Shown here: positions 3,047 through 57,366 of the stretch, piece by piece
Layout of the letters: every line of letters begins with the position of its first letter
How positions within the stretch are numbered: position 1 is the stretch's first letter
NCBI GenBank assembly: GCA_030688685.1
Contig: JAUYJF010000006.1
Span: 120 to 64,119, forward strand
Reading direction: 5' to 3'
DNA: 64,000 bases
From: Candidatus Yanofskybacteria bacterium
GTDB taxonomy: Bacteria > Patescibacteriota > Minisyncoccia > Minisyncoccales > UBA10102
The notes under the pieces: generated by a model
Databases searched by the model: none
What the model was told of the DNA's origin: nothing
The model's input: the letters and a program-made list of their open reading frames with translations, nothing else
Made by a program: the position numbers and the translations under genes

Positions 3047-3310
3047 TCAATTCCCCTCTTTCCACTCAATCCATTTTTGCTGGGGAATACCAGACTGACG
3101 TATAATGGTTTTCAGCGTCTTTGGATGAATGGAACTGTTTCCATGATATTGGACATGCGTTTGTCGCGGCCTTCCTCCATAATGTCCGAGATAATAAAAA
3201 TGACTTCCGCGCGCATGTGTGTGCTGGAAGCCATTTTCCTCTAGAAATTTCACAATATTTTTAAACGTCCAATTCTGTAATCCCCGAGACATATGCCTAC
3301 GCGTTGGCAA
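3047..3310 (-). CDS. hicA: HicA-family mRNA interferase toxin
   Basis: GFQHTHARGSHFYY...IHPKTLKTIIRQSGI matches the HicA pattern GSH...HP...TL..I..Q.G. It overlaps the upstream hicB by 14 nt. Confidence 0.6.
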   Translation of the reverse strand: MPTRRHMSRGLQNWTFKNIVKFLEENGFQHTHARGSHFYYLGHYGGRPRQTHVQYHGNSSIHPKTLKTIIRQSGIPQQKWIEWKEGN

Positions 3311-12468: not shown

Positions 12469-12535
12469 CTCAATGAGAGTGGGAAGGGGCGCAAGGTCGT
12501 GCAGACCTCGATCCCTTCCCTTGTTTACCTCCTTT
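12469..12535 (-). repeat. conserved intergenic hairpin element, copy 1 (plus strand: CTCAATGAGAGT-GGGAAGGG...CCCTTCCC-TTGTTTACCTCCT)
   Basis: It shares GGGAAGGG/CCCTTCCC stem arms and the flanking CTCAATrAGAGT and TTTACCTCCT with copy 2 at 12897-12958. Each copy lies just downstream of a small minus-strand gene. The element includes an AGGAGGUAAA motif on the minus strand. Confidence 0.6.
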
Positions 12536-12896: not shown

Positions 12897-12958
12897 CTCA
12901 ATAAGAGTGGGAAGGGAAGCCGGAGTGCACCGACGATTCCCTTCCCCATTTACCTCCT
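12897..12958 (-). repeat. conserved intergenic hairpin element, copy 2
   Basis: CTCAATAAGAGT-GGGAAGGG-aagccggagtgcaccgacgatt-CCCTTCCC-CATTTACCTCCT. The stop codon of the upstream gene lies inside the AGGAGGTAAA motif of the element. Confidence 0.6.
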
Positions 12959-13448: not shown

Positions 13449-13522
13449 CTGGTGGGGGCGAGGAGATTCGAGCTCCCGCTTCCGATGTGAAAGGCCGGTG
13501 ACCTTCCCGTAGTCGACGCCCC
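13449..13522 (-). tRNA. tRNA-Glu (anticodon UUC), CCA encoded
   Basis: My manual fold gives a 7-bp acceptor stem GGGGGCG/CGCCCCC, U8, a D-arm GACU/GGUC, the anticodon loop CUUUCAC (identical to the E. coli tRNA-Glu loop), a T-arm GGGAG-CUCGAAU-CUCCU, discriminator A and CCA. Length is 74 nt. Confidence 0.8.
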
Positions 13523-13641
13523 CACCGTAATGTGCTTGCTCCCGCGGTCCTTCCGGTGACTCCCCACCAGATTTCCGCTCATCGCGCGGAGCTTGCGCGC
13601 CCTGGTCTGACCCGCCAGGGAGGATTTTGACTGCGGTCTGC

Positions 13642-13983
13642 CTAGTCGACCACGTCCACCAGCACGTCCACCAGGCGAAAAGTGAACGTGGCGGCAGAGA
13701 TTTCCGCGTCGGTGAACTCGCGCGTCTCGCGCGGAACACCGGAAATCTCGGCCACTAGGCAGGAGTCCCCCGCCTCCAGGCGAATCCGCCCGCCCTTTGC
13801 AGAGCGAACATCAACGTCCAGATGCCGGGACACCGCGTCCAGGGTGTTCCCGTGGCTAGGGTTAGCCACGTTCTCCACTCCGGCGCGGATGAACTCCGCC
13901 GCTTCCTCGGGCGTTACCGTCCGAACGGCCACTTGGCCGTCGGGCAGCATGGAAAGCCCGAGGGTGGTATTGAAATACCTCAA
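13642..13983 (-). CDS. DUF1874 family protein (STIV B116 / AcrIII-1 / Crn2 ring-nuclease family)
   Basis: It aligns along its length with B116-like proteins. FNTTLGLSML matches FLTNAFSINML, NVANPSHGNTLDAVSRHL matches NAIGHDSTINLVNTL (with the conserved His), and RIRLEAGDSCLVAEI matches KVKMNEGDEALIIMI. The start was placed at TTG 13983, which has a perfect AGGAGG 5 nt upstream. The ORF track begins at 14109. Confidence 0.6.
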   Translation of the reverse strand: MRYFNTTLGLSMLPDGQVAVRTVTPEEAAEFIRAGVENVANPSHGNTLDAVSRHLDVDVRSAKGGRIRLEAGDSCLVAEISGVPRETREFTDAEISAATFTFRLVDVLVDVVD

Positions 13984-14332
13984 TTTTCCTCCTTTACCGG
14001 CATCCCATCTCGTTGCGGACTTATCGCGACAAGTTCTAGAGAACCGGAAATACTCGCTCTGTTTCCGGAGCGGCGAGCTGAACACTAATTTCTCTTGGAT
14101 CTCTTTCAATGAATCAAATACTGCAGATCAGATTAACTAATGCTCACTTCGCCGCTCCGGATGCATTTCAAAGAACAAACGGCTCCCTATATTGTTTGGA
14201 GAGAGCCGTTCAAGCAAAATTCGCTGCTATTTGCTAATCCTGCCTCTCTCCTTGCAGAACCAGCCCCTTTTTCTGTATTGACGCCAATATAACATACTAT
14301 TAAGAAAATGTCAAGTGCTGCGTGATGGTTCA

Positions 14333-33486: not shown

Positions 33487-33987
33487 TCATTTTAGCTCAT
33501 ACCCTACCTTATGCTTTACCTCGTTTAAATATACAATCGGAACGCCTGTTCTCTTTAATAAAACAGAACACTTGCTTGTGGGCGCGGGAGAGACGATGTC
33601 ACAATGGACCCCTTTTTCTGCCCAAAACTTTACCAATGGAGTGTAGTCGCCATCGCTTGAGACAAGCACAACAGAGGCAACGCCCTGCTCAAAGTAATCT
33701 CTTGCCGCCTGGAGCACCAAATCAGCATCACAATTTCCCTTCGCCCTTCCGTTGCCATCGTAAATAACCTCTTTAAAGACCAGCACATACCCGATGTTTT
33801 GCAGAGCGGTATAAAGATTCGCGTGTTTGGGCATCAAGCCAATGAACAAATAAGCATCCGTCGCACCGAATTTTTGACGGATCCAAGACCGGAATTTTCG
33901 ATAATCCAGCTTCCACAATGAGGACTCAACACCCTTGTGAAGGTTTGCTCCGTCTATATACGCAATATTCTTGGGGGTGGGCTGCAT
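33487..33987 (-). CDS. NYN-domain (LabA/PIN-like) putative RNase (~166 aa)
   Basis: IAYIDGANLHKG...VLVSSDGDYTPLV is the NYN signature. Start placed at ATG 33987. The ORF-track TTG start at 34086 adds an unrelated N-terminus. Confidence 0.7.
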   Translation of the reverse strand: MQPTPKNIAYIDGANLHKGVESSLWKLDYRKFRSWIRQKFGATDAYLFIGLMPKHANLYTALQNIGYVLVFKEVIYDGNGRAKGNCDADLVLQAARDYFEQGVASVVLVSSDGDYTPLVKFWAEKGVHCDIVSPAPTSKCSVLLKRTGVPIVYLNEVKHKVGYELK

Positions 33988-34153
33988 ATTTTTGGATTTT
34001 ATTGACAAACTATCTCCACCATACCCCCTTTGGAAGTGGGTTTCAATCCTTCGACTACGCTCAGGACAAACCTGAATTTGAGGCAAATTTCCACCATTTG
34101 GCGCAGGGCTGGGCTAAGCCGTACTTAGTCTAGTTCACAATATGACACTAGTC

Positions 34154-56832: not shown

Positions 56833-57282
56833 TCATGAAGGGTCGGAAGAATCCTCAAGCACGAGGACTACCAACTCTTTCGGCCCACCCACACCCGGTA
56901 TTTTTTCCAGCAGAGTGTGGATGTGCCTCTTGACCATCTTTACGGATATTCCAAGCAATTCTGCGATTGCTTGGTTGGAAGCGCCCTCCCGCAACAGTTT
57001 CAATACCTGTTCTTCGCGTGGCGTGAGGGGTTTGGCAAGCTGCAAAGCGCAAGAGTAACCAAAATGTTCGGCTGCAAGCTTTACCAGCTCTCTCCTCCTC
57101 AACTTTTCTTCGCTGGTCCGGAGAAGCTTGCCACTAAACCTAGATACGTGCGCTTTGACGGTGCGCACGGTCATGCCCAACATTTTTGCGATTATCTTGT
57201 TTGAATGCCCCTTCCCTACCTCCCGTAGCACCTGCTCCTCGCGGCGCGTAAGAGGAGGGATAGCTTGCGGAAGAACTACCAT
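56833..57282 (-). CDS. tandem LuxR/GerE-type HTH protein with no receiver or ligand domain
   Basis: There are two copies of LTxREx(Q)VL...G.SNK.IA..LG.SV.TVK.H. Start placed at the internal ATG. Confidence 0.7.
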   Translation of the reverse strand: MVVLPQAIPPLTRREEQVLREVGKGHSNKIIAKMLGMTVRTVKAHVSRFSGKLLRTSEEKLRRRELVKLAAEHFGYSCALQLAKPLTPREEQVLKLLREGASNQAIAELLGISVKMVKRHIHTLLEKIPGVGGPKELVVLVLEDSSDPS

Positions 57283-57366
57283 ATCGCGCCTCCTTCTTTC
57301 TGCTATAGAACATATATACATTGAGAGCCTGTTTTGTCAACACCACACTTCAAGCCGCCAGACGAA

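Follow-up and report, generated by a model that had tools for sequence, protein, structure and literature searches.

The DUF1874 family (Pfam PF08960) includes the viral anti-CRISPR protein AcrIII-1 and the ring nuclease Crn2, which share a mechanism of cyclic tetra-adenylate (cA4) cleavage (10.1101/778746, PMC11317161). In the AcrIII-1 protein SIRV1 gp29, His47 acts as general acid and its loss costs more than 2500-fold in rate, and the gene from Thermoanaerobacterium phage THSA-485A abolishes cA4-based immunity experimentally (10.1101/778746). For Crn2, mutation of N451, H495, R514 or E536 markedly lowers activity (PMC11317161), and CRISPR-associated forms have already been described (PMC12409355). 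Orphan DUF1874 genes are likewise known from bacterial chromosomes, usually on mobile elements, as in the case of YddF on ICEBs1 of B. subtilis (10.1101/778746). The gene described here, which lies in a 64,000-nucleotide (nt) stretch (the window) of a metagenome-assembled Candidatus Yanofskybacteria genome (Candidate Phyla Radiation (CPR)/Patescibacteria), is therefore by itself an expected kind of gene. It does, with its relatives, extend the Crn2/AcrIII-1 family by a divergent subfamily, largely missed by Pfam, some members of which belong to type III CRISPR-Cas loci in GC-rich bacteria while others are CPR orphans of foreign composition. Among the results listed by a full-text literature search, none combined ring nucleases with CPR or Patescibacteria.

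The window protein resembles AcrIII-1 (SIRV1 gp29, STIV B116, phage THSA-485A) in predicted fold, in a His44 corresponding to His47, in size, in having a single domain and in not being encoded beside cas genes. It differs in lying on no virus or mobile element that can be recognised (scans of two viral collections, IMG/VR by pattern and INPHARED by tblastn, yielded no member of the subfamily), in an identity of 15-21%, and in several of the residues that contact cA4. From Crn2, which in the known system is part of a fusion, it is set apart by being a free-standing protein of 113 amino acids (aa), by an identity of 13-17% and by its loop, PRETREF in place of RPEEGK, with the basic residue equivalent to R514/R66 offset by two positions; the window copy also lacks CRISPR association throughout the 64 kb, whereas its sister sequences P0199 and P0201 are CRISPR-associated. 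YddF is by description similar in being a chromosomal DUF1874 gene of foreign origin with no type III neighbour, but it lies in a defined conjugative element, while the unit here is apparently the gene with its ribosome-binding site (RBS) and a 3' tail, and its hosts are mostly CPR bacteria. By CRISPR association, then, the window protein is not a Crn2, and by residence on a virus or mobile element it is not demonstrably an AcrIII-1.

We consider it probable that the gene encodes a horizontally acquired orphan ring nuclease of the Crn2/AcrIII-1 type, working by the family mechanism, which came from a GC-rich pool where the subfamily resides in type III CRISPR-Cas loci and which has been kept under purifying selection. 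What is observed is the predicted fold, homology to the family, an invariant histidine, the CRISPR linkage of sister sequences, a foreign composition, the lack of a conserved context and constraint on the protein. The gene and its immediate features are as follows.

13642..13983 (-): coding sequence of 113 aa from a TTG at 13983, DUF1874-fold (Crn2/AcrIII-1-type) protein
13988..13993 (-): Shine-Dalgarno sequence AGGAGG, 4 nt 5' of the TTG, read from the sequence
13651..13674 (-): perfect 12-nt tandem duplication, CACGTCCACCAG twice, in the 3' end of the coding sequence (Tandem Repeats Finder)
13524..13641 (-): GC-rich structured 3' tail of ~110 nt, from stop codon to tRNA, common to the two closest homologue loci only
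13450..13523 (-): tRNA-Glu(UUC), identified by Rfam, 118 nt 3' of the gene stop and on the same strand; a neighbour, outside the element
14286..14314 (-): promoter-like site TTGACA-17-TG-TATATT, 11 of 12 consensus matches, ~300 nt 5' of the start

The minus-strand frame is open from 14109 to 13642 (155 aa), and an initial annotation of this DNA had chosen the TTG with its perfect AGGAGG as the start. This choice stands. Judged from the nucleotide sequence and its homologues, the TTG at 13983 is the correct start and the 113-aa product the correct reading, because AGGAGG lies 4 nt upstream and because the N-terminal segment YFNTTLGLSM is kept across 42 homologues, the majority of which begin M-x-YFNT in the alignment. 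In the structure model this segment is strand 1 of the predicted fold. The same gene product is present at NCBI as a 102-aa 'hypothetical protein' (MDP2641055.1, Q8P39_00735, our P0001) that begins at Met12 (13950 (-)) and so loses the conserved strand; this call is too short, and both the public start codon and the label need correcting. The 113-aa protein carries the subfamily motifs YFNTTLGLSMLPDG, NVANPSH(44)GNTL, GGR(66), GD(73)xCLV and PR(85)ETR(88)E(89)F. At its other end, the 12-nt duplication yields a window-specific C-terminal tail (...VDVLVDVVD) that is missing from the aligned homologues and whose last residues are modelled at low confidence (mean pLDDT 63).

From the single sequence the case for family membership is weak. 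PF08960 aligns to the window protein over profile positions 12-100 of 101, at 16.9 bits (E 0.007) and thus below the gathering cut-off of 26; phmmer against the PDB returned nothing relevant, and a profile of 42 relatives reached STIV B116 only weakly (E 0.17). Matches of that profile to the designed proteins OR280, OR276 and OR277 were dismissed as spurious. PHROGs returned just two weak families of unknown function. The question is settled by the relatives and by profile-profile comparison: 23 of the 42 close relatives match PF08960 at E<=0.01 (best 9.6e-7), and when the subfamily profile is set against SIRV1 gp29, STIV B116, AFV3-109 and the Marinitoga Crn2 domain in hhalign, 95 columns align at 91.9% probability (E 7e-7). 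The predicted model is confident and matches the AcrIII-1/B116/Crn2 fold and no other in Foldseek, with E ~1e-5 to 1e-6 and template modelling (TM) scores of 0.7-0.8 against the AcrIII-1 structures (SIRV1 gp29, PDB 6SCF; STIV B116, PDB 2J85); the best viral structural match is the phage THSA-485A protein (E 7e-7, TM 0.74/0.81). The window protein thus has, in its predicted model, the monomer fold characteristic of DUF1874/PF08960. By profile and structure it is a member of the DUF1874 (AcrIII-1/Crn2) superfamily, and belongs to a distinct, divergent subfamily that has the PRETREF loop motif and lies largely below the Pfam cut-off. The DUF1874 assignment of the initial annotation is accordingly upheld, as is the fold it had proposed to look for by structure prediction; the PF08960 search that it had recommended succeeds along the full length and across the relatives, but the window protein itself stays under the threshold.

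An exhaustive profile search of 1.84 billion representatives gave 196 clusters at E<=0.001, with only nine at E<=1e-30. A search of GTDB, sampled at one genome per species, found nine loci, six of them labelled Saccharibacteria, Daviesbacteria, Patescibacteria or unclassified 'bacterium' and the remaining three Gammaproteobacteria, Myxococcales and Aerophobetes. One metagenomic protein of 578 aa (P0049) carries the DUF1874 domain fused at residues 468-577 (E 1e-31 against the subfamily profile). Its charged N-terminal 467 aa match nothing in Pfam or the PDB and are unlike the large proteins encoded beside other homologues, so that P0049 is not recognisable as a fusion of the Csx1 type.

The conserved histidine in an SH motif, to which attention had already been drawn, is His44 of the NPSH motif. 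All 42 sequences have it, and its aligned counterpart is His47 in gp29, by both hhalign and MAFFT, and H495 in Crn2. R85, R88 and E89 are also invariant across the 42, and conservation reaches at least 90% at N5, R66 and E86. The conserved set of the subfamily thus consists of N5/T6, H44 and R66 together with R85, E86, R88 and E89 of the mobile loop, residues of the same types as the activity-critical N451, H495, R514 and E536 of Crn2. The loop itself reads PRETREF where canonical AcrIII-1 has QRLEEGK. A catalytic glutamate had been proposed for checking alongside the histidine; E86 and E89 of the loop are conserved, within a loop two residues shorter than that of gp29. From these alignments we regard the catalytic histidine as established and the remainder of the predicted cA4 site as plausible only, given a shifted register and replaced contacts that are taken up below. 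By analogy with the characterised enzymes, we infer cA4 as the substrate, dimerisation, and the products.

In GC-rich bacteria, two members of the subfamily occur within type III CRISPR-Cas loci. One of them, P0199, shares 55% identity with the window protein and is present on 21 contigs; it directly follows Cas6 (PADLOC E 6e-20), with a Csx1 CARF-HEPN effector 2.3 kb away (PADLOC E 1e-79). The other, P0201 (58% identical), has a stop codon that overlaps the cas10d start, and beyond cas10d lie Cas5/Cas7 of subtype III-D and Cas11. Both carry the motif set of the orphans, except for R66K and E86V in P0199. A neighbour-joining tree supports the subfamily at 85% and a CRISPR-linked clade at 78%, sister to or nested within the orphans, with an unresolved backbone. 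The presence of members 55-58% identical to the window protein inside type III loci ties the subfamily to cA4-type signalling, which is, on the evidence of these gene neighbourhoods, the context in which its function operates.

At L009/L021 (6503-8350 (-)), a 615-aa protein is encoded between the CRISPR-linked DUF1874 gene and Csx1; it has a PCMT methyltransferase domain and a PADLOC mad2 match, together with a C-terminal RNxxxH HEPN-like motif seen by eye. A PP2C-like gene lies ahead of Cas6 in the same loci.

Most of the orphan copies, including that in the window, show a foreign composition. GC content of the gene is 63.7%, against 50.6% for the window, and its GC content at third codon positions (0.78) is the window maximum, with a mean of 0.548 +/- 0.046 for 53 window open reading frames (ORFs) (z 5.1). 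A higher-GC patch of small genes had been described at this position; gene, tail and tRNA are indeed GC-rich and are essentially all there is to the patch, but the small neighbouring ORFs are only at 52.7-56.3%. An excess confined to the gene is also seen in at least nine other orphan loci, L005, L006, L008, L010, L011, L012, L014, L017 and L018 (z 2.6 to above 10), and in the orphan loci it falls off within ~100 nt of the ORF ends. The CRISPR-linked copies, in contrast, match their GC-rich flanks, and in one locus (L001) the composition of the copy deviates in the opposite direction. In orphan pairs that were compared, the proteins are 61-84% identical, yet only 0.11-0.53 of the four-fold degenerate sites match. 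Protein identity that is kept while silent sites approach saturation points to an old divergence, with purifying selection acting on the protein. The persistence of GC-rich silent sites could possibly reflect continuing import from a GC-rich pool, or selection at the nucleotide level. Particles of a host prophage have been shown to attach to a CPR episymbiont and, to a limited degree, to infect it (PMC13578794), so such particles are a conceivable route of gene flow, which we mention as background only.

In L005 (7775-9861), an ORF resembling an insertion sequence-type (rve) transposase was recognised by eye a short way upstream of the orphan gene, together with at least 0.8 kb of GC-rich sequence (58-72% GC) within a locus of 42% GC, which suggests a larger foreign insert there. 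In L026 (5207-7119), and in L027, a homologue 64% identical (P0032) stands in a tight same-strand run of AAA_28, CYTH (a weak match), DUF1874 and GNAT acetyltransferase genes, and its GC content matches the flanks.

How much DNA was transferred can be judged from the closest relative, in L014, which is 84% identical to the window gene in amino acids and 81% in nucleotides. In blastn the nucleotide match begins 12 nt before the start codon, so the RBS is included in the shared DNA, and runs beyond the stop into the ~110-nt GC-rich tail; homology is confined to RBS, ORF and 3' tail. The tail is conserved in the three closest loci (window 13524-13641 (-), L014 6060-6176 and L028 795-905), and in their alignment RNAalifold predicts 19 pairs, eight of them with changes on both sides, such that a hairpin and an enclosing stem stay paired. 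The fold of the single tail sequence is no better than that of shuffles (z -0.9). The tail may act as a terminator or stabiliser, or as a recombination site. Beyond the unit no neighbourhood is conserved: all-against-all BLAST and phmmer of ORFs from the homologue loci compared, and tblastx of 12 kb of the window, found the gene alone to be shared. These comparisons support horizontal acquisition as a gene-sized unit (~470 bp) of RBS, ORF and putatively structured 3' tail and not as an island.

Two further identities of the tail were considered and rejected. It is not a widespread RNA motif, since a covariance model (R1) matched only its three training sequences (window, L014 and L028) and Rfam gave no match. 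Nor is it an integron cassette with an attC site: inspection of the window and L014 tails revealed neither RYYYAAC nor GTTRRRY cores, no integrase was seen, and the predicted structure is branched with multiple hairpins, as opposed to the one long imperfect hairpin of attC.

Upstream of the orphans in L008 (4728-10330), L010 (6627-10333) and L014 (1177-6062) there is a similar order of genes - a large uncharacterised protein (688-1004 aa), a convergent TrmB-family regulator, then the DUF1874 gene - and L008 has three TrmB paralogues in 20 kb. No mutual similarity was detectable among the large proteins of these three loci.

If the window protein follows the mechanism of its family (10.1101/778746, PMC11317161), a homodimer would bind cA4 at its interface, the mobile PRETREF loops would close over the ligand, and His44, as general acid, would protonate the leaving group in a metal-independent cut of the ring to two A2>P. 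Cleavage of cA4 would switch off cA4-dependent effectors, and the role of the protein would be quenching of the cA4 signal, whether for anti-defence, as the legacy of a mobile element, or in the service of a type III system elsewhere in the genome. In this particular genome it may quench cA4 from such a system, may be an anti-defence gene that arrived with an unrecognised mobile element, or may serve some purpose of the CPR lifestyle.

Several observations weigh against the view that the gene is an acquired cA4 ring nuclease. Neither a source of cA4 (Cas10) nor a cA4-dependent effector is encoded in the 64 kb, and CRISPR-Cas is rare in CPR genomes (PMC4742961, PMC6509639), so the substrate may be absent from this cell. 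In the sequence alignments, positions at which gp29 contacts the ligand are replaced (N8 by T6, S11 by G9, N13 by S11, S49 by N46 and Q81 by E79), R66 and R85 stand two positions after the gp29 R66 and R85 counterparts, and the loop is two residues shorter; the comparison of active sites is one of sequence alignments and a single-chain model. The window protein alone scores below the Pfam gathering cut-off, as described above.

As regards the missing partners, the earlier statement that no CRISPR-Cas is in view holds for the entire window: PADLOC found no Cas, CARF, SAVED or CBASS (cyclic-oligonucleotide-based antiphage signalling system) component among its 88 ORFs, nor any CD-NTase, TIR or cyclase, and no CRISPR-like repeat array is present. 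Matches of PADLOC models 'CARF3--CARF' and 'CasR' were rejected as evidence of a cA4 sensor, since only the helix-turn-helix (HTH) ends of the models match and no CARF domain is involved; scans of concatenated chunks traced them to the C-terminal LuxR HTH of the following protein.

56836-57321 (-): 162-aa protein with two LuxR/GerE-type HTH repeats

The other PADLOC matches in the window are to generic domains (a metallo-beta-lactamase (MBL)-fold protein, a histidine kinase, NYN, a HIT-family protein and a PP-loop ATPase). Outside the window, PADLOC likewise found no cas gene within ~10 kb on either side of the orphan in six other loci (L005, L006, L008, L010, L011 and L012), and no Cas Pfam family occurs in six further annotated contexts. 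Among the pooled ORFs of the same six loci there are strong PADLOC matches to PDC-S01 (E 2e-131), SspH (3e-65) and mad8/mad2, so some orphan copies may sit in defence-rich regions.

These distributions bear on the possibility that the gene is strictly a host Crn2, a ring nuclease acting in trans on behalf of a type III system elsewhere in the genome and limiting self-damage after cA4 signalling. The closest relatives with informative context do belong to type III loci, no more than 64 kb of the genome is covered by the window, which lies on a contig of 65,435 bp, and ring nucleases of effector-less loci have been proposed to act in trans (PMC12409355). That no cas gene accompanies the orphans in any of the contexts just listed, that CRISPR-Cas is rare in CPR genomes, and that foreign codon usage speaks against a long-resident regulatory partner nevertheless make this unlikely. 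We also doubt that the protein has the same fold but a different job, namely cleaving or sequestering some other oligonucleotide, be it cyclic or linear (such as a CBASS, Pycsar or Thoeris signal, or RNA ends), or performing a non-enzymatic role. The many replaced AcrIII-1 ligand contacts and the two basic residues shifted by two positions would fit such a change, the apparent AAA_28-CYTH-DUF1874-GNAT operon of P0032 hints at other nucleotide chemistry, and a preprint raises the question of whether viral DUF1874 proteins are anti-CRISPRs in their native systems (10.1101/2023.01.10.523387). The contact substitutions occur, however, also in the CRISPR-embedded members beside Csx1 and Cas10, and are therefore features of the subfamily and no mark of a new role in the orphans; the histidine and the loop arginines and glutamate are invariant, and in the window PADLOC detected no CD-NTase, TIR or cyclase. 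Antagonism of CBASS, which had been put forward as an example, finds no support: nothing points to it, and the nearest relatives with informative context sit in type III CRISPR loci.

The initial annotation had leaned towards a prophage or island remnant, with the tRNA-Glu as an integration landmark, and an AcrIII-1 left behind by such an element would fit the foreign composition of the gene. The surrounding small orphan ORFs are singletons at 90% clustering, a more distant homologue (L013, 31% identical) adjoins an ORF resembling, by eye, a small terminase subunit, the contig of P0016 has conjugation-type ATPases, and known bacterial DUF1874 genes, YddF among them, are often on mobile elements. 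The position of the gene upstream of the tRNA was correctly noted, but that is its 5' side, and islands insert at the 3' end of a tRNA. The window locus has neither an integrase nor a repeat of the tRNA end, the neighbours have no PHROG or Pfam phage matches, a tRNA is adjacent in none of the 17 homologue loci scanned, and both the GC anomaly and the shared DNA end at the borders of the gene. As the subfamily is in addition not found in IMG/VR or INPHARED, we regard an integrated prophage or island as highly improbable; what survives of that proposal is horizontal acquisition, at the scale of a single gene, and the tRNA is not a landmark of it. Finally, a non-working gene, be it an assembly chimera or a decaying fragment with chance resemblance to the family, might be suspected from a sharply bounded GC-rich patch in a contig of 50% GC and from the Pfam score under the cut-off. 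The identical 113-aa ORF is however present in an independent Logan assembly (with a 104-aa neighbour on a 3191-bp Logan contig that is probably the ORF's own contig), the ORF is intact and has an RBS, conservation is family-wide alongside saturated silent sites, and a confident model shows the fold expected of the family, so that there is hardly any chance of this being correct.

An acquired orphan ring nuclease, our preferred reading, allows a more far-reaching scenario that we offer as speculation with the odds clearly against it: CRISPR-poor, host-dependent CPR bacteria would have taken over a type III CRISPR ring nuclease, perhaps repeatedly, from GC-rich bacteria that may be their hosts, or from phages of those hosts, and would have kept it as a gene-sized mobile unit for counter-defence against cA4 signalling. 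If true, a cellular parasite would be using an anti-CRISPR enzyme in the way that viruses do, and the GC-rich codon usage would be a record of ongoing gene flow from the donor pool. Should the orphans be active cA4 nucleases, the question becomes what cA4 signal a CRISPR-poor episymbiont would need to quench.

Turning to the surroundings of the gene, the promoter-like site at 14286..14314 could, judging by its match to the consensus, drive the gene and, as there is no terminator-like site between gene and tRNA, possibly the tRNA too; one such match was found where 0.7 are expected by chance. Within the putative 300-nt leader between this site and the start there is an inverted repeat (14064-14095/14130-14161; 32 nt, 78% complementary, with a 34-nt loop). 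An antisense ORF across the gene (13682-14140 (+)) was judged to be a by-product of GC-rich codons. In the Rfam scan the tRNA was the sole match.

The window is otherwise of a housekeeping character, with rpoA, S4, S11, S13, alaS, mnmA and tpiA (the DUF1874 gene lies in the alaS-mnmA interval), followed by ORFs whose translations look by eye like those of ribosomal-protein, EF-Tu, EF-G and ATP-synthase genes. A HicA-type toxin ORF (3050-3310 (-); PF07927, E 1.3e-8) lies ~10 kb from the DUF1874 gene, and an NYN/LabA-like nuclease gene (33490-34086 (-)) lies 20 kb from it; others of this type are found two genes from a homologue in L002 (6588-7154) and L003 (1212-1682), a recurrence that is probably coincidence. 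Downstream of the tRNA, two intergenic copies of a short module (12469-12533 and 12897-12958, ~427 bp apart) are situated between small orphan ORFs, each reading on the minus strand AGGAGGTAAA, then a GGGAAGGG...CCCTTCCC hairpin, then ACTCTYATTGAG. In the copy at 12897-12958 an ATG right after the RBS opens a 68-aa ORF, which overlaps an annotated 102-aa ORF in a different frame.

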